Shown piece after piece: positions 9,763-64,000 of a stretch of 64,000 nt of DNA; position 1 is the stretch's first letter; every line of letters starts with the position of its first letter. The DNA comes from an uncultured Acidobacteriaceae bacterium (GTDB lineage: Bacteria > Acidobacteriota > Terriglobia > Terriglobales > Acidobacteriaceae), in contig CAWGFZ010000001.1 in assembly GCA_963821995.1 (NCBI GenBank), positions 183,897-247,896 on the forward strand. The letters run 5' to 3'. The notes beneath the pieces are model-generated. The model ran no database searches and had not been told where the DNA came from. It worked only from the letters and a program-made list of their open reading frames with translations. Position numbers and translations under genes: made by a program.

Positions 9763-12231
9763 ATGAGTCCTCGCGAGCGCACGTCCTCAAAACGGCCGCA
9801 TGGCAGCATGAACACCGTTCGCCCATTCACTCCGACAGGCAACCGCCGGCTCAATGAGCTGATCGGCTTCCTGCTGTTCGTCTTCGCGGTCCTCCTGGTC
9901 CTCGCGCTGGTGTCGTATTCGCCGCTGGATCCTTCGCTGAACACCGCGGCCACGCCGCCTGCGGGCAAACCGGCGCATAACTGGATCGGAGTTGTGGGCG
10001 CACTGGTCGCCGATCTTGCGCTGCAACTGTTCGGCGTCGCGGCGTTTCTGTTGCCGGCATTTCTCGCGATGTACTCGCAGCACTGGTTCCGCTCGCGCCC
10101 CATCGGCTCGCCATATGCAAAAACCATAGGCGCGGCCGGGCTCATCGCTTTTCTGTCTGGCTTCGTAGGACTACTCCCACACACCGTCCGCTGGAAAGGC
10201 GTGATTCCGTCTGAAGGCCTGCTCGGCCGGATTGTCGCCGACGCGCTGGTTCATTACTTCAACGTGATTGGCGCGTATATCATCTGCGTCGCTGTAATCG
10301 GTGTCGCCCTGTATCTTTCGACTGCATTCTCCTTCGGTGCGGTGCGCATCTGGTCGCAAACCCGCTTCGGCTTTGCGTATGCGGCACTTGATCGCTTCGC
10401 CGACTGGCGCATGGAACGCGCCCGCAAGAAAGCCGCCAGAGATCTGGAGAGGAAGCGCGCCGCCAATCTCAAGCCGGTGGTAACGGCACAATTGGTGCCG
10501 AAGCGCGAGACCGCGCCGGAAGAAGGCAGCGTGCCAGCTTCGCCAGGCTCGTCGCCGCAAAATTTGCCGGCGCCGGTTCCGCTGCCGAACCGCGCCAACG
10601 TGAAGAGTGGTATCGAGCGCATGTTCGAGGCCGAGAGCAGCGCGCCTCCGGCAGCGCAGCCCGCTGAAGATGCGCCTGATGACGATATAGCGGTCGGAAC
10701 GCGCGCTGACGCGGTGCATCATGGCAAGACCACAATGCCGCGTCTCGTCGGCAGTTACAAGCTGCCTTCGACGACGTTGCTGCATCGCCCCGACGAGCAC
10801 AGCGCCATTAACGAAGCAGAGCTCAAGATCCTGGCCCAGGTGCTGGCGGAAAAATGCGGCGAGTTCGATGTTCGCGGCCAGGTGGTGCAGATCAATCCCG
10901 GGCCGGTGGTGACGACGTTCGAATTCAAGCCCGAGGCCGGCATCAAGTACAGCCGCATCACCAGCCTGTGTGATGACCTCTGCCTCGCCCTGCGCGCCGA
11001 AAGCATTCTCATCGAGCGCATGTCAGGCAAGTCGACGGTCGGCATCCAGGTGCCGAACCACGAGCGTGAGACGATCTGGCTGCGCGAAGTGGTCGAGGCG
11101 CAGGAGTTCATTGGCACCAAATCGAAGCTCACGCTGGCGATGGGCAAAGACATCAACGGCCGCATCGTCACCGCCGATCTCAACACCATGCCGCACCTGC
11201 TGATCGCGGGCTCAACCGGCTCCGGCAAGAGCGTCGCCATCAACGCCTTCATCATGTCGATCCTCTACAAGGCGACGCCGCAGGAGGTGCGGCTGATCCT
11301 GGTCGATCCCAAGCGGCTGGAGCTGGGCAACTATGAAGGCGTGCCGCACCTGCACACCCCGATCATCACCGAGCCCAAGCTGGCCTCGAATGCGCTGCGC
11401 AATGCGGTACTGGAGATGGAGCGGCGGCTGAAGGTGCTGGCGGAAAAAGGCGTCCGCAATATCGATCAGTACAACAAGCTCTTCGACGCCTCGACCGCCA
11501 GCCTGTTCGAGGAGGGTGTCGATGACGCTCGTCCGCTGCCATACATCGTCATCATCATCGATGAGCTGGCGGACCTGATGATGCTGGACGGGCAGAACGT
11601 TGAGGCGTCCATCACGCGGCTGGCGCAGATGGCGCGTGCGGTCGGCATCCACCTGGTGCTGGCGACGCAGCGGCCGTCGGTGGACGTCATCACCGGGTTG
11701 ATCAAGGCGAACTTTCCCGCGCGTATTTCCTTCCGGGTGGCGACCAAGGTCGATTCGCGGACCATCCTTGACTCGAACGGTGCGGAAGCTCTGCTCGGCC
11801 GCGGTGACATGTTGTACCTGCCGAATGGCTCGGCGCGAGTGCATCGCGTGCACGCGCCATTGGTGACGGAAAAGGAAATCGCCGCCGTGGTGGAGTTCTG
11901 GCGTGCGCAGGGCGAAGCGCAATATCAGGAGAAATTCCTGCAAGCTCCGCGCGAAGATGGCGACTCGGTGAGTGGGGGCGGCGCTGGCGACGGCGCCGGA
12001 GACGACGATCACGACGAACTCTACCAGGACGCCGTGCGCATCGTGCTGGAGTACGGCAAGGCTTCAACTTCATTACTGCAGCGCCGCCTGCGAATTGGCT
12101 ACGGCCGCGCTGCCCACCTCATCGACCTGATGGAGCGCGACGGCATCGTGGGCGCCGCCGATGGCCCCAAGCCTCGCGAAGTTCTGAAGCGCCCCGACTG
12201 GCTCAGCGAAGTCGAAGACGCGATGCGGTAG
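9763..12231 (+). CDS. ftsK: DNA translocase FtsK
   Basis: 822 aa; N-terminal TM segments, a Pro/Ala-rich linker, the motor domain with Walker A (IAGSTGSGKSVAIN) and IIIDELADLMM, and a C-terminal gamma winged helix (SLLQRRLRIGYGRAAHLID.ME). Confidence 0.95.
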   Translation: MSPRERTSSKRPHGSMNTVRPFTPTGNRRLNELIGFLLFVFAVLLVLALVSYSPLDPSLNTAATPPAGKPAHNWIGVVGALVADLALQLFGVAAFLLPAFLAMYSQHWFRSRPIGSPYAKTIGAAGLIAFLSGFVGLLPHTVRWKGVIPSEGLLGRIVADALVHYFNVIGAYIICVAVIGVALYLSTAFSFGAVRIWSQTRFGFAYAALDRFADWRMERARKKAARDLERKRAANLKPVVTAQLVPKRETAPEEGSVPASPGSSPQNLPAPVPLPNRANVKSGIERMFEAESSAPPAAQPAEDAPDDDIAVGTRADAVHHGKTTMPRLVGSYKLPSTTLLHRPDEHSAINEAELKILAQVLAEKCGEFDVRGQVVQINPGPVVTTFEFKPEAGIKYSRITSLCDDLCLALRAESILIERMSGKSTVGIQVPNHERETIWLREVVEAQEFIGTKSKLTLAMGKDINGRIVTADLNTMPHLLIAGSTGSGKSVAINAFIMSILYKATPQEVRLILVDPKRLELGNYEGVPHLHTPIITEPKLASNALRNAVLEMERRLKVLAEKGVRNIDQYNKLFDASTASLFEEGVDDARPLPYIVIIIDELADLMMLDGQNVEASITRLAQMARAVGIHLVLATQRPSVDVITGLIKANFPARISFRVATKVDSRTILDSNGAEALLGRGDMLYLPNGSARVHRVHAPLVTEKEIAAVVEFWRAQGEAQYQEKFLQAPREDGDSVSGGGAGDGAGDDDHDELYQDAVRIVLEYGKASTSLLQRRLRIGYGRAAHLIDLMERDGIVGAADGPKPREVLKRPDWLSEVEDAMR

Positions 12232-42086: not shown

Positions 42087-42851
42087 CTACAAGGCCCGTG
42101 GCGGTGGAGGTGGGTAATTGTTCTCCGCCAGTTGCCTCTCGGCCTCGCGCAGCGCCTGCTGCGGATCGCGGCCCGTTACAGCCTTGTACCACGCAGGATG
42201 GTGCGTCCACCCCCAGGCTTCCGGGACAGTGCCGCGCGTCATCGCCTGGATCGTTCCCGGCTCGCCGAAGGTGCTGAGGTAGATGTGGAAGAAGATTCCG
42301 AACAACATGATCAGCGCGGAGATGTCGTGAATCACGTAGGAGATGGAAACCAGGATTCGTCCGAAAGTGTGGGGAAACCACATGATCACGCCAGTGATCA
42401 GGTACGCGATCGACCCGCAGACGATCTCCCAGAACTGCAGTTTCTGGCCGGCGTTGAAGAAACCGGTTTCGGGAGACTCTACGGAGTCGGTGCGGGTGAT
42501 GTAACTCTTGATGTGTTTCATCCAGCGCGAGTCGGCGTCGGTCCAGCGCATCACCGGCAGCCAGTTGATAGCTTGCAATGCGAAAAAGAAGACGAAGCCG
42601 AGCCCGAACCAGGGATGCAGAAAGCGCGTCATCGCTCCACCGCCGAACAGTGGCGTGAAGAAGCGGAAGATCCACGGCAGGTAGATACCGAATCCCGAAA
42701 GCAGCGCCAGGAAGAAAAAGATCCCAACCATCCAGTGCAGGAAGCGCGTGTACACCGGGTGACGCAGAAGCTCGCCTTTATAAACAACAGTCTGGCCGAG
42801 ATGGTCGATGGCGTTGGGCCGATGCTGGAATACGTTGGTTGAACTGGCCAT
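42087..42851 (-). CDS. fdnI: Formate dehydrogenase-N gamma subunit (cytochrome b556)
   Basis: 254 aa; four TM helices with the FdnI-type RFLHW.. start and conserved His residues. Starts directly after the fdnH stop. Confidence 0.85.
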   Translation of the reverse strand: MASSTNVFQHRPNAIDHLGQTVVYKGELLRHPVYTRFLHWMVGIFFFLALLSGFGIYLPWIFRFFTPLFGGGAMTRFLHPWFGLGFVFFFALQAINWLPVMRWTDADSRWMKHIKSYITRTDSVESPETGFFNAGQKLQFWEIVCGSIAYLITGVIMWFPHTFGRILVSISYVIHDISALIMLFGIFFHIYLSTFGEPGTIQAMTRGTVPEAWGWTHHPAWYKAVTGRDPQQALREAERQLAENNYPPPPPRAL

Positions 42852-43787
42852 CTAATTCTCCTTCCCGGGTGCCGCAGCAGAGGATGGCGGCGGAGGCGGT
42901 ACGATCGTCTTGACCGGCGGTGTGGGCTGCATCCGCCGCGGGCCCTCGAAGACATAGTGCATCACAACGCCCACAAAGCCCAGCATTGCGCCGAACAGGC
43001 CAATGGGTTTGAAGATGTCCTTCCAAACGGTAAATGCCAGCGGAATGCGCGGCTCCTTGGGAAGGTTGCCGTATGCCTCAGGCTTCTCAATGTTGTGCAG
43101 AACGTAAATGACGCTGGTGCCGCCGATGCTGTCGGGATCGTACACGCCGGCATTCTTGAAGCCGTAAACATCGCGCAGTTGCCCGGCTCGTTTCTCGGCG
43201 AGGAACTTCATGTCATCCTTCGTGCCGAAGTGCAGACATCCCGTAGGACACGACTTGATGCAGGCCGGCTCCAGCCCTGCTCCCACGCGGTCAGAGCAGA
43301 GTGTGCACTTGTAAACTTTCTTCGTGCTCTCGTTGTACTTCGGGATATTGAACGGACAGCCGGAGACGCAGAACTGACAGCCGATACAGTTTTCCTGGCG
43401 GAAGTCGACGATGCCGTTGGAGTACTGGACAATCGCGCCGTCAGCCGGACAGGCGCGCAGGCAGCCGGGATCGGCGCAATGCATGCATTGATGCTTGCGC
43501 ATCAGCCAGGCGAAGCTGCCGTCCTCGTGTTCGTCCTCGTTGAACTTGATGAGGTTCCAGTAGTTCCAATCGGTGTCGGGCATTGTCTGGTAGGTGTTGT
43601 CGAAGTGCGTGGTCTGGAACGGCATGTCATTCCATTCCACGCAGGCCACCTCGCAGGCCTTGCAGCCGATGCATGTGGTGGTGTCGATCAGCTTGCAGAC
43701 TTTGTCCTGCCGCTGTGTTCCTTCTCCAGGCACCGGCCCGGGATGGGCCGAGATTTGCTGAATTCGTAGTGTTCCGCGATCGCTCAT
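42852..43787 (-). CDS. fdnH: Formate dehydrogenase-N iron-sulfur (beta) subunit
   Basis: Start at ATG 43787. Four 4Fe-4S motifs (CIGCKACEVAC, CMHCADPGC, CIGCQFCVSGC, CTLC..R) and a C-terminal TM anchor (IGLFGAMLGFVGVVMHYVF). Confidence 0.9.
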   Translation of the reverse strand: MSDRGTLRIQQISAHPGPVPGEGTQRQDKVCKLIDTTTCIGCKACEVACVEWNDMPFQTTHFDNTYQTMPDTDWNYWNLIKFNEDEHEDGSFAWLMRKHQCMHCADPGCLRACPADGAIVQYSNGIVDFRQENCIGCQFCVSGCPFNIPKYNESTKKVYKCTLCSDRVGAGLEPACIKSCPTGCLHFGTKDDMKFLAEKRAGQLRDVYGFKNAGVYDPDSIGGTSVIYVLHNIEKPEAYGNLPKEPRIPLAFTVWKDIFKPIGLFGAMLGFVGVVMHYVFEGPRRMQPTPPVKTIVPPPPPSSAAAPGKEN

Positions 43788-43855
43788 CACATGCCTCTTG
43801 TTGGCGCACCGTTCGACCCCGCGCAGGGCAGCGTCTTGCGGTGCCATTTACAAGC

Positions 43856-44049
43856 TTTGAAGGGGCACGCCTTCAGGCGTGCCGAACAGCGCACCCCGTT
43901 GTCATCCCGACCGAGCGGCTTGAGCCGCGAGCGGAGGGACCTGCTTTCCTCACGCGAACCGCAGATCCCTCGGCTCGGACTAAAGTCCTCGCTCGGGACG
44001 ACAAAGGAAAAACAAACAGCGTCGGCACGGCTGAAGCCGTGCCCTTTCA
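43856..44049. repeat. MITE-like composite repeat in the fdnG-fdnH intercistronic spacer
   Basis: Ends are inverted copies of one ~30-nt module: TTGAAGGGGCACGCCTTCAGGCGTGCCGAA (left) and TCGGCACGGCTGAAGCCGTGCCCTTTCAA (right). The interior carries GTCATCCCGACCGAGCGGCTTGAGCCGCGAGCGGAGGGACCTGC. Confidence 0.75.
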
Positions 44050-44053
44050 AAAC

Positions 44054-47000
44054 TCACACCTTCTCCAACTTCACCAAAAATCCCTTGAATTCCGGCGTGT
44101 AAGCATTGGGATCAATGACCGTCGGCGTCAGCCGGTTCGCCGGCATCTTCGAGGTTCGGCCTTCATCTTCGGAAATTCCGCGATAGCCCCAGTGAATGGG
44201 GACGCCGATCTGGTACAGCTTTTTGCCATCGACCATCATCGGCTTGATGCGCTTGGTCACCATTGCCTTGGCGATGTAGTCGGTCCGTGCGCTGGTGACC
44301 TTCAGCTTCTCGCCGCCGCGAATGCCCATCTGGTCAGCCAGTTCGGCCGGTACCTCGATGAACGGCTCCGGCACCAGTTCGACATTCATCGGATTGTTCT
44401 TCGTCCAGTAGTGATAGTGCTCGGTGATCCGATATGTGGTGCAGATGATGTTGTAGCCTTCTTGCACCGTGCCGTACTTGTCCATGGGCGTCTTGAACTT
44501 CTTCACCACCGGATTGTTGGACTGGTTCGGGTGCAGCGGATTGGCGATGGGGCCCTCGATGGGCTCGTAGTGTTCCGGGAACGGCCCGTCGGCCATCGCG
44601 CCGAGCGGAACGAAAATCCGCCCGACTCCCTCCGGGATCATGATGAATGGCCCCATGTGCTCTTCCGGCTTGGAGTCGGGCTTGAAGTCGGGAACGTCAT
44701 TGCCCACCCACTTCTCCGCGGTTTCGTTCCACCAGACCTGTTTGCGGCTGGGATCCCATGGCTTGCCGGTGAGATCGCACGACGCGCGGTTGTAGAGCAC
44801 GCGCCGGTTCATTGGCCACGACCATCCCCAGTTGGGATAAATGCCCAACCCTGACGGATCCTCCGTGCCACGCCGCTGCATCATCGGCCCGGCCTCTGTC
44901 CACGAGCCGCAATACAGCCAGTTGCCGCACATGGTGGAACCGTCGTCGCGCAGCATGCCGAAGCCCGGCAGTTGCTGCCCGGCCTTGAGAGACGTCTTGG
45001 TCTTCTCGTCCTCAATGTCGGCCACAGCCTTGCCGTTGATCTCCTTTGCCACTTCGGCCAGCGAGGGGCTGGTCGGGAGGGTGTATGTCCACGAGGCGTT
45101 CACGATGGGGTCGGGGAACTTGCCGCCCTCCTTCTTGTAGAGCTCGCGAACCTTGAGAAAGATTTGCGCCAGGATGTCCTGATCGAGTCGGCACTGGCCC
45201 GGCGGCGGCAGCGCAACGTGCTTCCACTGCAGCCAGCGCGCGGAGTTCACGAAGGTCCCGTCTTTTTCGGCGAAGCCTGCGCCCGGCAGGCGGTACACGG
45301 TCGTCGGGATCTGCTTCATCTCCTCGGGCGTGGTGCCAGGCGCCTCCCAGAAGGCGCTGGTCTCATCGGGATAGATCTCGCAGACCACGAGAAAATCGGC
45401 CTTCTTCAGCGCGTCGATGTTTTTCTGCGTATCCGGGCCGATCATCACGCCGTTCATGCCGAATGCGAAAACGCCCTTGACCTGCCCGTTGTACATGTCG
45501 TTCCAGTTTTCGACCCAGGAGTACTTGCGATCGATCTTCGGCAGGTAGTTAAAAGCGAAATCATTCTCTTTCGTGGCCGTGTTGCCGTACATGGCCTTCA
45601 GGAACGAGACCATGAACTTGGGCGTGTTCGACCAGTAATTAAACGATTCCCAGTCGCCCGGCTTCGCCGGCTTGGGCGTGGTGCGTGCGAGGAAAGTCTT
45701 CAGATCTTTATCCGCAGGGGTGGGCATTTTCAGATATCCCGGAAGGATGTCGAAGATGCCGGCCATATCGGTTGCGCCCTGGATGTTGGAGTGCCCGCGT
45801 AGGGCGTTGACGCCGCCGCCCGCGCGTCCGACATTGCCCATCAGCAACTGCAGCATCGCCGCAGTGCGGATGATCTGCGTGCCGTAGCTATGCTGCGTCC
45901 AGCCGACTGCGTAGATGATGGTCCCGACTTTCTTTGTGTCTCCATCCTTGCGGATGGAGGTGTACATGTCGGCGGCCTTCAGGAACTGGTCTTTGGGTAT
46001 GCCGGTGATGCGCTCCACCATCTCCGGCGTGTAGCGTGAGTACTGCTGCTTCAGGAGTTGATAGACGCAGCGGGGGTGCTGCAGCGAGAGGTCGTAGGCG
46101 ACCTTCTCCGGCATCGAGGGAGGCGGGATGGGTCCGCCGCCTATCGCCTTCGCGCCCGCAGGTCCTTGTGGCTGATAACCCTGGCCTTCGGGACCGTGAT
46201 GCGTCACGCTGCCTTCTTTGGCACGAGGCACGCTGCCTTGCGGCTCGTGGCCTTTGGGCGCTCCTTCGGTCGCAGGAGTGCCGGCCGCGACGAGTTTGCC
46301 CGTCTCGTTACCGCCTTCCTGGTAATTCCAGGTGCTCTTGTCGTAGGTCTTGGTATCGGCGTTGAAGCCGGAGAACAGCCCGTCCTCGGGAAGCTTGAAT
46401 CCTTCCTTGACGATGAAGGCGGCATTGGTGTAGTTGACGAGGTATTCGTGGGCGACGCGGTTGTTCTGAATCGCGTAGCTGATGACGCCGCCGAGAAATG
46501 CAATGTCGCTGCCGGCGCGAATCTGGCAGAACAGATCGGCCTGCGACGCGGTGCGGGTGAAGCGCGGATCGACCACGATCACACGAGCGTTGCGGTTGCG
46601 CTTGGCCTCGACTACCCACTTGAATCCGCAGGGATGGTTCTCGGCCGGATTGCCGCCCATGATCAACATCATGTCGGCATTCTTGATGTCGATCCAGCCG
46701 TTGGTCATCGCCCCGCGTCCGAAAGTTGGTCCCAAACTTGAGACCGTGGGGCCGTGTCAAACCCGCGCCTGGTTTTCCAGGCGCACCACCCCCATCGAAC
46801 GCATTGTCTTCACAACCAGGTAATTGAACTCGTTGGTATCGGTGCAGCCGCCGCTGAAGAAGAGCTGCTCGCAGCGGTTGACGGTATTGCCCTTCGCGTC
46901 GGTCTCCATGAAACTAGCGTCGCGAATGGTTTTCGTCTTGCGCGCGATCTCGTCAATGGCCTGGTCCCAGGAGATGTCTTCCCAGTGGTCCGAGCCCGGA

Positions 47001-47338
47001 CGCCTGGCCTGAGGCTTCAACAGGCGCCGCTCGTTCTGGATGTCCTGCTGCAGCGATGCGCCCTTGGGACAAAGCGTACCGCGGTTGATCGGGTGATCGG
47101 GATCGCCCTCCACATGCACCACCTGAGGCGTTACGTTCTTCGCCTTATCGCCGATGGTGTGGATGATGACGCCGCAACTCACCGAACAATACGGGCACGT
47201 GCTGCGCGTCTCCGTCGTACGCGAGATTTTCAGGCTATCGGCTTGTGCCAGAATAGGCCGTGCATCGAAACCGAAGACCGTGATCCCCACTGTGCCGGCG
47301 ATGCCGGTCTTGAAGAATGCTCGTCTAGAAACGTCCAT
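44054..47338 (-). CDS. fdnG: Formate dehydrogenase-N alpha subunit, selenocysteine-containing (in-frame TGA at 46759-46757), Tat-exported
   Basis: Track ORFs 46757-47338 and 44054-46735 are one frame. The sequence reads ...VVRLENQARV-TGA-HGPTVSSLGPTFGRGAMTNGWIDIKNADMMLIMGGNPAENHPCGF, matching the E. coli FdnG context ENQARV-U-HGPTV.SL.PTFGRGAMTN.W.DIKN. N-terminal twin-arginine signal MDVSRRAFFKTG and the CPYCSVSCG Fe-S motif. Confidence 0.92.
46728..46745 (-). promoter_or_regulatory. Candidate bacterial SECIS hairpin for fdnG
   Basis: mRNA GGUCUC-AAGUUU-GGGACC (6 bp including one G-U pair) begins 11 nt after the UGA. It can be extended by GCCCC/GGGGC outer pairing. Confidence 0.55.
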
Positions 47339-47585
47339 GCGGACCTCCAGCGCGAACGACGATTGTCAGAAAAACTAAAGTTTGCTGGTAAGAAGCGGCG
47401 TAATCGACACGCCGGGCAGAGGGAGCGGGAAAGAAGTGTAGATTGATGTTTCTCATGTCGTCAGCCGCCGGAGACGGGGCTACGAACTCGCATCTTGTTT
47501 GCCAAACCCGTAGGAGATTACACCGGCGCACGGCGGAGGGTCAATGCGAAAATGCACCGCGCCCGGCTGGAGATTGGAAAGAAAT

Positions 47586-48419
47586 TTAGAAGCCCATCAG
47601 GTTGGGCTGGATCTTGCGATAGCCTTGGCCGGCGGCCCAGACGTCCAGGGCAATGGTGGCGATTTCGTCCACCTCGGGGACCATAAGTCCGTCGACCGTC
47701 AGGTCAAAGGACTTCAGATAATACTTGCAGGTTTCGCAAGCCTCCACGCGCACGCCAATTGGATCATCCGGCGAATAGCGTGGGAGCTTCGTATGGTCCA
47801 CCTCGCCGCAAAGCGGGCAAAGCACTCTTCGAAACTCCCATTCCGTCAAACAGAACGAGCATGCAAGATGCCGCTTGCCGCCATCGCCCTCCGGCCGGAG
47901 CACGGCGAGTTGCGGCTTACTACAGCACACAGGACAGCTTGACCCGAAGGCTTCTGGAGGCAGGGAACATTGCGATGACAGGAACTCTGCGCAGGGCTGC
48001 AGCGCCACTCGGGCAAATAATGACTCAGCCTCGCTCAGGGAAAGCTGAGCTGCTTGCAGGAATTCAGTCAACACATGCCGTTGCTGCGATGCACCGGCAG
48101 TTGCGACTCGCTCAGCCTCGACGGCGAGCTTGGCGGGACCATGATCTCTGACCCTCTGCAGCACGGCCGGCAACCACTCCATGGCGAAAGCGACGTCCAA
48201 TTGCTGCAGGAAGGAAGGTCCAGGCTGCGGCACTTGAGTTGCGCGAACGGATGCCTCTTCGTAGATGCGCCGCTGCAAGGCAAGTACGTGCTGCAAGAAG
48301 TTGAGCACCTCGGAGGTGGCCGGTTCACGTTCCCGCAATTCGACTGCCCGTCGAATACGCTTCTCCCAATTGACTTTGTGTATACGATGATTGGCGGCCG
48401 AAGACATGCCCGTCATCAT
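47586..48419 (-). CDS. fdhE: Formate dehydrogenase accessory protein FdhE
   Basis: 277 aa; four CxxC pairs (CPVCCS, CSFCLTEW, CPLCGE, CETCKYYLK), typical of FdhE. Lies upstream of fdnGHI on the same strand. Confidence 0.85.
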   Translation of the reverse strand: MMTGMSSAANHRIHKVNWEKRIRRAVELREREPATSEVLNFLQHVLALQRRIYEEASVRATQVPQPGPSFLQQLDVAFAMEWLPAVLQRVRDHGPAKLAVEAERVATAGASQQRHVLTEFLQAAQLSLSEAESLFARVALQPCAEFLSSQCSLPPEAFGSSCPVCCSKPQLAVLRPEGDGGKRHLACSFCLTEWEFRRVLCPLCGEVDHTKLPRYSPDDPIGVRVEACETCKYYLKSFDLTVDGLMVPEVDEIATIALDVWAAGQGYRKIQPNLMGF

Positions 48420-61884: not shown

Positions 61885-62081
61885 CTACCTGCCTATCCAC
61901 TGCAGCCGCAGCGCCTTTTCCTTCGCAGCCATATCACGCAACTCGGGATCGCCGGTCGCCAGCGGCGCGTCCTGCAGGATTGCCGTGGCGGCGGCGAGGC
62001 CGTCAGCGTAAGAAATCGCATGTCGCGCCTTGAGCGTGGCCGCCAGCATGCAGCCCACGCATCCAGAATTGGGTCTCTCAT
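61885..62081 (-). pseudogene. Internally deleted PIN-domain (VapC-like) toxin remnant
   Basis: The ATG at 62081 overlaps the upstream stop (ATGA) and reads MRDPILDAWA. A different frame then reads ...LAATLKARHAISYADGLAAATAILQDAPLATGDPELRDMAAKEKALRLQWIGR* (PIN C-terminal signature). Total length is about 65 codons against about 130 expected. Confidence 0.45.
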
Positions 62082-62521
62082 CGGACTCGAGCTGGGTCCT
62101 TCGCGAACTCGGCCTTGCGGTCCTCCCGCATCATCTTCTCCGCGTCGACTCCGGCAAGAGAACCCTGCAATTTATCCAGCGGGCGCGCTTGCGCCTCCAT
62201 GTAGGCGCGAAGGATCGCGTTTATGCGGGTTTGATAGCCGGGCCCGTTGCGTAACCAGTCCAGGAGATCAGCATCGAGCCGAATGGTCACGACCTTCTTG
62301 GGCCGCGGTAGAACCACCTTGGCTCCGCGCCAAAATTCCGCGTCAGTGGGCTCTATGTCCGGATCTTCAGCGATCGAGGCGCCGATCTCATCGTCGGTCA
62401 TAGAACGAAACTTTTTCCAATTCGTCCTGAGTTCAGCCGGCTCGCCCTCCGATTTCTTGCCAAAACGTCCGGCGCTGATGCGGTGCCGATCGCCACGCCG
62501 AGATGATGTGCCGCTCTTCAT
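62078..62521 (-). CDS. brnA: BrnA-family antitoxin with an atypical ~35-aa C-terminal extension
   Basis: ELRTNWKKFRSMTDDEI...DPD..PTDAEFW..A.VV.P..KK.VTIRLDADLLDWLRNGPGYQTRINAILRAYMEA. The only in-frame start (ATG 62521) overlaps brnT by 89 nt, so the start is uncertain. Confidence 0.6.
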   Translation of the reverse strand: MKSGTSSRRGDRHRISAGRFGKKSEGEPAELRTNWKKFRSMTDDEIGASIAEDPDIEPTDAEFWRGAKVVLPRPKKVVTIRLDADLLDWLRNGPGYQTRINAILRAYMEAQARPLDKLQGSLAGVDAEKMMREDRKAEFAKDPARVR

Positions 62522-62720
62522 TATGGCGCTCCGTGTAAATTACCGTCGTCTCAATGCCATCAACTAAGCCAATCGCGTAAATCCGAACTTCTCCGTAATC
62601 GAAACGATCGTCTTCTTTCTCAACTGTCGGCCCCTCAAAGATGCGCACGGCATCCTTGAAGGCAAGGCCGCGCCGCCTCACATTAAGGTTGTTCTTCGCG
62701 ACATCCCATGTGAAACGCAT
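62433..62720 (-). CDS. brnT: BrnT-family (DUF497) ribonuclease toxin
   Basis: 95 aa; MRFTWDVAKNNLNVRRRGLAFKDAVRIFEGP......DDRFDYGEVR..AIG...G....V.YTER....RIISAWRS. Confidence 0.7.
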   Translation of the reverse strand: MRFTWDVAKNNLNVRRRGLAFKDAVRIFEGPTVEKEDDRFDYGEVRIYAIGLVDGIETTVIYTERHNEERHIISAWRSAPHQRRTFWQEIGGRAG

Positions 62721-62773
62721 CTCTATATTTACATATTGTATTTACGCAAATCAAACCCTATGCGCCACACTGC

Positions 62774-63319
62774 TCAGCGGTTCAGCTTCCTCGCCTGGCA
62801 GGCGTCCACGACCTTGGTCGGATCGATGGCATCCGAATCCAGTTGCATCTCTATCACCTTGCCGTCCTTGTCGATCAGGTAATTCACCCGGCGAGCCGCT
62901 TTGTACTTGGGATTGTAGAGCCCGTATTCCTTGGTTACGTCGCCGCCCCAATCGCTAAGCAACGGGAAGGTGATTCCGATTTGTTCCGCCCATGCTTTAT
63001 CGGCGAAGGGCGAATCCATGCTCACACCCAGGACCTGGGTGTCGGCGGCTTCCAGCTTGGCAAGGTTCTGCTGGAAGGCCTGCATCTGCTTGGCTCAACC
63101 GCCGGTGAAAGCGAAGATGTAAAAGGCCAGGGCGACATTCTTCTTGCCGCGGAAATCGTGCAGCGAAACTTCTTTGCCGTTCTGGTCCCGCAAGGTAAAG
63201 TCGGGCGCGACATCGCCGACCTTGACCTTCGGTGCCGGCATCTCGCTGGGCTTGTCGGCAGCAAAGCCCGGCGAAGACAGCGATCCGCCGAGCAGCAGTG
63301 CTAGCAAAAGCTTCCTCAT
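62774..63319 (-). CDS. Exported AhpE-like 1-Cys peroxiredoxin with in-frame TGA (putative selenocysteine) at the peroxidatic position (63097-63095)
   Basis: Track ORFs 63095-63379 and 62774-63085 share one frame. The sequence reads [113 protein letters not shown].... The TGA aligns with the FTG.C peroxidatic Cys of AhpE-type peroxiredoxins. Start at ATG 63319 with a GGAGAGGAGAGG RBS. Confidence 0.75.
63047..63080 (-). promoter_or_regulatory. Candidate SECIS hairpin for the peroxiredoxin UGA
   Basis: mRNA GGC(C)UUCCAGC-AGAACCUUGCCAA-GCUGGAAGCC: 10 bp with one bulged C, starting 15 nt after the UGA. Confidence 0.5.
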
Positions 63320-63514
63320 TAAGCCTCTCCTCTCCATATTTCGTGAAACCCCAATGGCGTGTGTCTGACATTGTCCCATTGCCGCGCCCAGATTGCCACG
63401 GGCGTTCTGTCAAGTGCATTTTGTAGTTTGTGGCACACCCGCTTCCATTTCGGAACGTGGGTCAAAGGCCACCCCACTTTCCCAATTGCGGAAGCCGTCT
63501 CCTACGAGATACAT

Positions 63515-63531
63515 TGAATGAGTATTCATTC
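63515..63531. promoter_or_regulatory. Palindromic box TGAATGA-GTA-TTCATTC upstream of the TetR gene (candidate FadR/YsiA-type operator)
   Basis: GAATGA-GTAT-TCATTC perfect inverted repeat 67-83 nt before GTG 63598. By recall, it resembles the TGAATGA..TCATTCA box of Bacillus FadR (YsiA). Confidence 0.45.
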
Positions 63532-63597
63532 GGCGCGCAGCGCCAGCGCTTGCAGACACTTTAGGCGCGAGTCTCTCAGGCGGACGACAAGTTGCAC

Positions 63598-64000
63598 GTG
63601 GGAAAACCCGATCACAACTTTGCTTCTCCGGCAGATACCGTCGCCGCTCCCGTAAACCGGAATGCGGACAAGTACCAGCGCATCCTGGATGCGGCCGTCG
63701 CGGTGTTTGCCGAGAAAGGCTTCTTCACCTCGCGCGTCGCTGATATTGCCGACCGTGCCAATGTGGCCGATGGCACCGTCTATCTGTATTTCAAGAGCAA
63801 AGAAGAGATCCTGATGACGGTCATCAATACGGCCTTTGACGCATTTATGACCCTGGCGCGCACCGAACTGAAGAAGCTGCCTGATCCGGCAGAGCGACTC
63901 CGCAGGCTGGCGTTTCTGCACCTGGACGCGCTCGGCTCGAATCGCGATCTGGCGGTTGTTTTCCAGATGGAGCTGCGGCAAAGCACGCGTTTTCTTTCCG
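63598..64000 (+). CDS. TetR/AcrR-family transcriptional regulator (FadR-like), 3' end beyond the window
   Basis: Absent from the ORF track (no stop in window). The frame reads ...NADKYQRILDAAVAVFAEKGFFTSRVADIADRANVADGTVYLYFKSKEEILMTVINTAFDAFM.., a classic TetR HTH. The start (GTG 63598 or TTG 63592) is uncertain. Confidence 0.85.
   Translation, partial: MGKPDHNFASPADTVAAPVNRNADKYQRILDAAVAVFAEKGFFTSRVADIADRANVADGTVYLYFKSKEEILMTVINTAFDAFMTLARTELKKLPDPAERLRRLAFLHLDALGSNRDLAVVFQMELRQSTRFLS

Follow-up and report, generated by a model that had tools for sequence, protein, structure and literature searches.

AhpE of Mycobacterium tuberculosis (Rv2238c), the protein that defines the AhpE subfamily of peroxiredoxins, is a 1-Cys enzyme of 153 amino acids (aa). 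It has no second cysteine and no signal peptide, and its reductants are mycothiol and mycoredoxin, which are actinobacterial. Peroxiredoxins with selenocysteine (Sec, U) as peroxidatic residue are also known. This Sec-peroxiredoxin family, PF00578 proteins with a TxxU motif, consists of established selenoproteins; 12 proteins were counted in 2006 and 91, from 78 organisms, in 2016, and PrxU has been studied biochemically (PMC1794560, PMC5029168, PMC13188914). PrxU of Eubacterium acidaminophilum and the Bcp-type protein WP_011365628.1 both belong to it (PMC1794560, PMC5029168, PMC13188914, PMC12013277 supplement). A peroxiredoxin of the cell envelope has been described in Caulobacter crescentus, where PprX is reduced via the DsbD-like membrane protein ScsB (PMC3322552). 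We analyzed a peroxiredoxin gene on the minus strand of a 64,000-nucleotide stretch of DNA (the window, to which all coordinates refer) from an uncultured Acidobacteriaceae bacterium (GenBank assembly GCA_963821995.1, contig CAWGFZ010000001.1, positions 183,897 to 247,896). The gene is interrupted by an in-frame TGA. From sequence comparisons we conclude that gene 62774-63319 (minus strand) very probably encodes one exported AhpE-like peroxiredoxin of 181 residues, in which Sec, encoded by UGA 63095-63097, would be the peroxidatic residue.

The predicted protein shares with the Sec-peroxiredoxin family the AhpC/TSA fold, the peroxidatic Sec in a TxxU motif, the existence of Cys homologs and a hairpin just past the UGA. 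It differs from the published members in its active site and at its N-terminus. Reference sequences of the Prx1/PrxU type (FYPGDFTFVU) and of the Bcp type (FYPKDSTPGU) keep the canonical Pro, whereas the window family has Ile or Val at this site. At the N-terminus, the two Prx1/PrxU-type references are extended by a polar stretch, which the Bcp-type reference lacks. A signal peptide is not evident in these references, in contrast to the window family, for which one is predicted. By a small margin, the window family ranks closest to AhpE, with which it has in common the TFPLLSD block, a further 10-residue block, the Thr and the Arg. AhpE has Cys instead of Sec and retains the canonical Pro. The window family also departs from the 1-Cys character of the AhpE subfamily, because it has an invariant second Cys near the C-terminus. 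PprX offers a precedent for a peroxiredoxin in the oxidizing envelope that receives its electrons across the membrane. PprX itself is a Cys enzyme.

The gene had been pointed out in an earlier reading of the DNA letters (the original prediction), according to which no exported AhpE-type Sec-peroxiredoxin is known in Acidobacteria. The exported AhpE-like Sec form is indeed new, but the novelty is narrower than implied, as PF00578 proteins with TxxU are already established as Sec-peroxiredoxins (PMC1794560, PMC5029168, PMC13188914). A search for the FTGGU motif, also among the Solibacter entries, gave no match in the accessible part of the 2006 selenoproteome supplement (PMC1794560). In the literature we found no paper that joins AhpE with a Sec form or that describes a Sec-peroxiredoxin in Acidobacteria. 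Very probably, the protein extends the known Sec-peroxiredoxins by a new member that is AhpE-like and exported, is not covered by NCBIfam, is widespread in soil Terriglobales and is systematically mis-annotated.

Reading frame, identity and conservation of the gene

According to the list of open reading frames (ORFs) and the sequence itself, the minus-strand ORF 63379..63095 terminates with the TGA at 63097-63095. A second ORF runs from ATG 63085 to 62774 in the identical frame and begins 9 nt after this TGA. The original prediction had read both as parts of one AhpC/TSA protein, and this was borne out with the read-through product, which matched the Pfam family AhpC-TSA (PF00578) over profile positions 1-123 of 124 with E = 3.5e-37 and a score of 127.5 bits (cut-off 26). 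The start at 63379 given there had to be corrected. Position 63379 is merely the first ATG of the open frame, and the likely start codon is ATG 63319 (MRKLLL...). This start is indicated by three lines of evidence: a Shine-Dalgarno-like sequence, GGAGAGGAGAGG (63324..63335, minus strand; read from the sequence), that ends 4 nt upstream of the ATG, the gene calls for a 74-aa N-terminal piece on source contigs L081-L083, which begin at ATG 63319, and the starts of the orthologs. The complete coding sequence of the Sec-peroxiredoxin would thus extend over 62774..63319 (minus strand) and comprise 181 codons, of which codon 75 is the UGA for Sec; its terminator is TGA 62774-62776. A promoter and terminator scan of 62650-63650 revealed nothing that exceeds background.

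Among proteins of solved structure, those that matched the product best were entries for M. tuberculosis AhpE (E = 5e-28 to 1e-27), with an identity to AhpE of 41% over 140 alignment columns. In the printed alignment the TGA column falls precisely on the peroxidatic Cys of AhpE (FAFTGG-U against LAFTGIC), as had been proposed. As for the proposed AhpE type, AhpE ranked first by sequence and by fold, although with a small margin over archaeal Bcp/PrxQ proteins. In the sequence ranking AhpE was on top with 101 bits against 91 for archaeal Bcp, which is a small margin. For the fold, the Cys-form relative P0004 was modelled with AlphaFold2 (AF2; pLDDT 86), and this model matched AhpE best, with a TM score of 0.88-0.90 normalized to AhpE and a root-mean-square deviation of 1.5 Å; archaeal Bcp proteins followed close behind, again by a small margin. 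No NCBIfam model scored above its own cut-off with the read-through product. The top model was Bcp, below its cut-off, and the PrxU model (NF040737) reached 77 bits against an equivalog cut-off of 270.

Conservation of the TGA was analyzed in two scans. The first covered one genome per species and yielded 80 loci (L001-L080) in Acidobacteriaceae, Korobacteraceae and metagenome-assembled genomes (MAGs) of Terriglobales, at 72-90% identity. TGA was present at codon 75 in all 80. The second, a metagenome scan seeded with Cys-form relatives, gave 84 loci together with four contigs fetched by look-up. Here, 81 sequences from metagenomes and contigs bore the motif, with TGA in 80 and TGC in one, at identities down to ~40%; three loci missed by the first pattern included two further TGA forms. 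Across ~160 related sequences the putative Sec codon is kept together with both of its flanks. The only sense alternative seen at this column was Cys, which occurs in a few rare relatives (P0004, P0007, P0012, P0014, P0017, P0048 and, in a tandem protein, the first domain). These forms establish Cys/Sec pairs, which are typical of selenoproteins and had been named beforehand as a check of the prediction.

Both sides of the TGA are under strong purifying selection. The ratio of nonsynonymous to synonymous substitution rates (dN/dS), calculated against the window sequence, was 0.086 upstream of the TGA (43 codons) and 0.068 downstream of it (106 codons), with dS ~1. Neither frameshifts nor additional stops were present. 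The low dN/dS on either side of the TGA argues that both halves must be translated as protein. Relatives with a sense codon and a decayed downstream half, which were listed as a sign of the contrary, were not seen: TGA is universal in close relatives and both halves are constrained.

The family showed some further variation. True terminators of the Sec forms (L001-L170) were TAG in 63, TAA in 56 and TGA in 28 cases, and the window copy ends with TGA. In some MAGs two Sec-peroxiredoxin copies are located on separate contigs (L004/L007, L021/L030 and L054/L059). Metagenome contig L087 encodes a tandem fusion at 104-1011 (P0003, P0010), whose first peroxiredoxin domain is of the Cys type (TGC) and whose second domain, in the identical frame, is of the Sec type (TGA). 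The two Gly codons that precede the UGA (window 63098-63103) are GGT in 72/79 and 74/80 orthologs and GGC GGT in the window; elsewhere in the Sec-peroxiredoxin gene GGC is the preferred Gly codon. This GGT bias directly 5' of the UGA may reflect a codon-context effect on UGA recoding.

Active site, cysteines and export

The in-frame TGA at 63095..63097 (minus strand) is read here as Sec75, the predicted peroxidatic residue, on the basis of its position in the AhpE Cys column and of the TGA in the relatives. It is part of a TxxU motif at the start of helix alpha2, T72-G-G-U75, which aligns with T-G-I-C of AhpE. The codon of Thr72 lies at 63104..63106 (minus strand) and aligns with the Thr of AhpE FTGIC; the position is Thr in 143 and Ser in 4 of 147 distinct Sec forms. 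For the Cys form P0004, the AF2 model has a helix that begins at the Cys (H77-86). Arg144 (codon 62888..62890, minus strand) aligns with AhpE Arg116, the conserved catalytic Arg of peroxiredoxins, and R143 and R144 are both invariant in alignment A1. Cys174 (codon 62798..62800, minus strand), also invariant in A1, is the sole Cys of the mature protein and a candidate resolving residue. In 160/161 family sequences the part that follows the Sec/Cys position holds a single Cys, a few residues before the C-terminus, and the stretch from the APDF motif to the active site holds none. The distance between U75 and this second Cys is 99 residues, and a UxxC or CxxC motif is absent.

The Pro of the canonical PxxxTxxC motif, conserved in PF00578 peroxiredoxins, is replaced in the window protein by Ile68 (codon 63116..63118, minus strand), where AhpE has Pro. 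Among the 147 Sec forms this site is Ile in 98, Val in 47, Leu in 1 and Asn in 1, and never Pro. The Pro is kept in AhpE, in the published Sec-peroxiredoxin reference sequences and in one Cys form (P0048).

A signal peptide of the general secretory type, with cleavage by signal peptidase I (SPase I), was predicted heuristically for 63260..63319 (minus strand); its putative cleavage site lies in front of ADKP. Neither a lipobox Cys nor a twin-arginine motif is present in it, and both are rare in the relatives (6 and 8 sequences, respectively). A hydrophobic core of 10 residues with a Kyte-Doolittle value >=2.0 (at least 2.0) was detected in 151/155 relatives despite their sequence divergence, a Lys or Arg in the n-region was present in 149 relatives, and small residues precede A-D/A-Q in the relatives sampled. 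Residues 1-27 have no counterpart in AhpE. A probable SPase-I signal with n-, h- and c-regions is kept across the family, and the heuristic count of matching architectures in 151/155 relatives agrees with the export that was originally proposed.

The features of the active site bear on the question of whether the exported selenoprotein acts as a peroxidase. It could instead be a thiol-disulfide (selenol-thiol) oxidoreductase similar to TlpA or ResA, or a redox sensor. The canonical peroxiredoxin Pro is absent in 147/147 Sec forms, exported proteins of the AhpC/TSA fold are often thiol-disulfide oxidoreductases, and weak matches to ResA, TlpA, SCO1 and SelL-related models were obtained; the U and C pair could serve as a redox couple. 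In contrast, there is no UxxC or CxxC motif, with the second Cys 99 residues off, and Thr72 and Arg144, the catalytic residues of a peroxidase, are conserved. Furthermore, the best matches in sequence and fold are true peroxiredoxins (AhpE, Bcp), and in NCBIfam peroxidase models outscore ResA. We consider an oxidoreductase or sensor function unlikely on these grounds and return to the protein as an exported Sec-peroxiredoxin.

For such an enzyme the following course may be proposed. With the UGA in the A site, SelB-GTP-Sec-tRNA(Sec) would be recruited by a downstream structure, leading to insertion of Sec and not to termination. The recruiting structure would most likely be hairpin H1, whose base lies 15 nt from the UGA, possibly aided by hairpin H2 (both described below). 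Export of the preprotein via the general secretory translocon would follow, with cleavage behind GFA. Once in the periplasm, U75 would act through its selenolate, which is placed by Thr72 and Arg144, reduce H2O2 or organic and lipid hydroperoxides and thereby be converted to a selenenic acid. Cys174 would resolve the selenenic acid to a U75-C174 selenenylsulfide, which some thiol-disulfide reductase of the envelope would re-reduce.

RNA hairpins and decoding of the UGA

Downstream of the UGA two RNA hairpins can be drawn. Hairpin H1, a putative selenocysteine insertion sequence (SECIS), covers 63047..63079 (minus strand); it has the stem GCC-UUCCAGC / GCUGGAA-GCC and a 13-nt loop, and its base lies 15 nt after the UGA. 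Eight pairs of H1 are contiguous (CUUCCAGC/GCUGGAAG) and more follow past a bulge or mismatch, 10 in the minimum free energy (MFE) fold. Folded alone, H1 had an MFE of -15.3 kcal/mol (z = -2.5). Hairpin H2 (63024..63042, minus strand) follows 4 nt after H1 and has the form ACACCCAG-GUC-CUGGGUGU, with 8 bp and a G-U-N triloop. The original prediction of a 10-bp hairpin 15 nt after the UGA was right in the hairpin and in its start, but the 10 pairs are reached only with the extra pairs of the MFE fold, the contiguous stem having 8, and the second hairpin at 63024-63042 had gone unmentioned. The role of H2 may be an accessory one, or H2 may be the part that binds SelB in a composite SECIS.

Synonymous sites were compared in 80 distinct close sequences. 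In H1, codons +7, +8, +13 and +14 were invariant or nearly so at synonymous sites and codon +15 was strongly biased (UUC CAG ... AAG CUG GAA). The same was true for codons +19, +20, +22 and +23 in H2 (ACC CAG ... CUG GGU, (near-)invariant), where ACC and GGT were invariant in spite of GGC being the usual Gly codon of the gene. The loop codons +11 and +21 rank among the most variable of the gene. Stem codons differed from the rest of the gene in synonymous variation with p = 7e-7 (Mann-Whitney).

Covariation was evaluated in group A, a set of 74 diverse sequences. Here, 92% of the cells were paired, compared to 25-42% with the partners slid. Seven pairs showed changes on both sides, and 0/500 shuffles attained the observed values. 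Compensatory changes in H1 included U-A to C-G, C-G to G-C and G-C to A-U. H2 was paired at 99.7% across the 74 sequences, and its loop-closing pair was G-C in 57, A-U in 10, G-U in 6 and a mismatch in 1. H1 thus is a SECIS-like hairpin just past the UGA with covariation support, and the conservation downstream of the UGA that the original prediction had asked for is present as a hairpin kept by compensatory changes. The Sec-type domain of the L087 tandem fusion has both hairpins, with a G-C in place of an A-U pair in H2. A possible 3-bp helix between GGY on the 5' side of the UGA and RCC on its 3' side was dropped because it was inconsistent across sequences.

A distant subgroup, group B (L147-L167), lacks the H1 and H2 sequences. 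It has another hairpin instead, GGCNUAUCA-GGC-UGAUAuNGCC, also 15 nt after the UGA, which is 95% paired and shows a C-G/G-C flip at 7:8. Cys-form genes were used as a control: H2 was broken in three of them and weakened in the fourth, and H1 was intact in one only. The structures therefore track the UGA and not the amino-acid sequence. A covariance model of H1 and H2 was run on the window and matched only the Sec-peroxiredoxin gene; it revealed no further selenoprotein genes there.

The window itself contains a second gene with a Sec codon. The gene fdnG (44054-47338, minus strand), which encodes the periplasmic alpha subunit of formate dehydrogenase-N, has a TGA at 46757-46759 within ENQARV-U-HGPTV, the canonical Sec site. 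The motif is that of the FdhA2 selenoprotein of Solibacter usitatus (PMC1794560), and Acidobacteria are documented as Sec users (PMC1794560 supplement; PMC12013277). The canonical Sec UGA of fdnG implies the Sec trait in this organism. The claim that an fdnG of this window needs Sec decoding therefore stands, but not for the gene initially taken for it: the 822-aa ORF at 9763-12231 (plus strand) was rejected, as it encodes FtsK. A SECIS-like hairpin with a 7-bp stem and an AGUU loop is located 11 nt after the fdnG UGA. FdnG resembles the Sec-peroxiredoxin in being an exported selenoprotein of the same genome with a hairpin after the UGA. FdnG carries a Tat signal and its gene has a single hairpin at 11 nt, whereas the Sec-peroxiredoxin has a predicted signal of the general secretory type and two hairpins, the first at 15 nt. 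The gene is part of an fdhE-fdnG-fdnH-fdnI operon at 42087-48419 (minus strand), in which fdhE, fdnH and fdnI were confirmed by Pfam; the remaining ORFs tested near fdnG were unrelated.

Several observations weigh against the gene encoding an exported Sec-peroxiredoxin. ARAGORN detected no tRNA gene in the 64-kb window, and thus no tRNA-Sec (selC), and selA, selB and selD were not among ten ORFs tested by Pfam around fdnG and elsewhere in the window. At gathering thresholds Rfam had no match anywhere in the window, and a relaxed search of 62980-63120 (E up to 10) gave a chance ctRNA match only and no SECIS family. The loop of H1 is large (13 nt) and without an invariant G (codon +9: CAG 56, CAA 16), and it is unlike the small G-containing loops of the fdnG SECIS and of the group B hairpin. 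Due to this difference, either H1 or H2 may be the SelB binder. The Cys-form hairpin control comprises n = 4 sequences, which is small. The signal peptide call was made by heuristics (n-region charge, Kyte-Doolittle core and small residues). Finally, the missing canonical Pro of the active site means that peroxidase activity is not guaranteed.

With its G-U-N triloop, H2 is similar to the group B hairpin and the fdnG SECIS, both of which have small loops with a G; the loop of H2 sits 60 nt from the UGA, unlike H1, which is in the canonical place. One tentative proposal, which we rate as possible but rather doubtful, is a composite two-hairpin signal in which the H2 triloop would be the real SelB-binding element and H1 a structured spacer. 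The signal would belong to periplasmic peroxiredoxins of soil and peat Acidobacteriota that form a large clade, contain Sec almost obligately, have dispensed with the Pro and act as two-residue U/C (selenenylsulfide) enzymes. To our knowledge, a two-hairpin composite SECIS architecture has not been described in bacteria so far.

The UGA could also be decoded as a standard amino acid, either as Trp or Gly by a reassigned code or as Cys or Trp by hairpin-stimulated near-cognate read-through. In agreement with this, six database entries show W at the TGA (P0001, P0002, P0005, P0011, P0013 and P0015), and the Sec machinery was not located in the window ORFs tested. At the DNA level, however, the W that some database proteins have at the Sec column corresponds to TGA, and these entries are artefacts produced by gene calling on short contigs; L084, for example, runs through the TGA terminator of the gene and another downstream TGA. 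TGA is the terminator of the Sec-peroxiredoxin gene in the window and in 28 orthologs, and genetic-code reassignment was rejected since TGA also ends genes here. Furthermore, the column is that of a redox-active Cys; catalytic activity would be lost with Trp or Gly at this site, and Cys is the sole sense alternative seen. In addition, fdnG of the same window has its UGA at the classical Sec site. Standard decoding is highly improbable in light of these data.

A split peroxiredoxin would consist of a secreted N-terminal piece, 54 residues after cleavage, and a cytoplasmic 103-residue piece translated from ATG 63085. The Met codon four codons past the TGA, which is ATG in 80/80 genome orthologs, would fit such a start. 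Gene callers find a start there because this Met is conserved: a collection of 5.8 billion proteins holds >100 clusters of 103-residue 'peroxiredoxin' fragments that begin at the post-TGA Met, and ~70 of the best 150 representatives (50% identity; read from the table) likewise begin there. Against a true start, there is no Shine-Dalgarno sequence between TGA and ATG, which are separated by only 9 nt (GCCAAGCAG), and the Met is not universal, being Val in L085 and often Leu in group B. The two pieces would reside in different compartments, neither with the catalytic residue, whereas Cys-form homologs are single chains. We give this arrangement very little chance. A pseudogene or a sequencing or assembly error, that is a nonsense mutation at the catalytic codon of a Cys-peroxiredoxin, might be suspected from the split by gene callers into 74-aa and 103-aa ORFs and from the public naming of the 103-aa piece as 'peroxiredoxin', but it has next to no probability and is effectively refuted by the conservation data: the same TGA in 80/80 species-level genomes and 80/81 motif-bearing metagenome/contig sequences from independent assemblies, dN/dS of ~0.07-0.09 on either side at dS ~1, no frameshifts or extra stops, and a downstream RNA structure that is kept.

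Gene neighbourhood and significance

Conserved next to the Sec-peroxiredoxin gene are a TetR gene that is transcribed divergently, genes for a FadD-like ligase and for a membrane protein of 855 aa, and an ORF of ~275 aa without classification. Of the 80 genome loci, 62 have an adjacent TetR gene and 60 a gene for a FadD-like AMP-binding protein. In the window the TetR-family regulator is located at ~63590-64000 (plus strand), divergent from the peroxiredoxin gene, with an intergenic region at 63320-63590. Within this region, an imperfect palindrome, CTTTCCCAATTGCGGAAG, is present at 63477-63494 and could be an operator. Immediately downstream of the peroxiredoxin gene, the window has a BrnT toxin/BrnA antitoxin pair (62078-62720, minus strand). 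This pair is not among the ORF clusters that recur in the 80 genome loci, where the gene for the 855-aa membrane protein is located instead, on the opposite strand. The conserved neighbours include no ScsB-, DsbD- or TlpA-like gene and no gene for a reductase of the selenenylsulfide.

Public annotation splits the gene into two ORFs, of which the 103-aa one carries the label 'peroxiredoxin'. As a consequence of this split annotation and of the missing NCBIfam model, a selenoprotein family that is abundant in Terriglobales of peat and soil escapes standard annotation and is not seen in selenoproteome counts. Three features make this more than one further Sec-peroxiredoxin, namely the lack of the Pro, the lone conserved Cys at the C-terminus and the pair of covarying hairpins; they may have a part in the mechanism and are worth follow-up. 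Since Pro loss goes with Sec in all Sec forms examined, the family is a natural experiment on the effect of Sec in a peroxiredoxin active site. The two-hairpin signal is a tractable test of bacterial SECIS requirements. The family adds an exported AhpE-like branch to the Sec-peroxiredoxins and suggests that selenium availability influences the envelope peroxide defence of dominant soil Acidobacteria.

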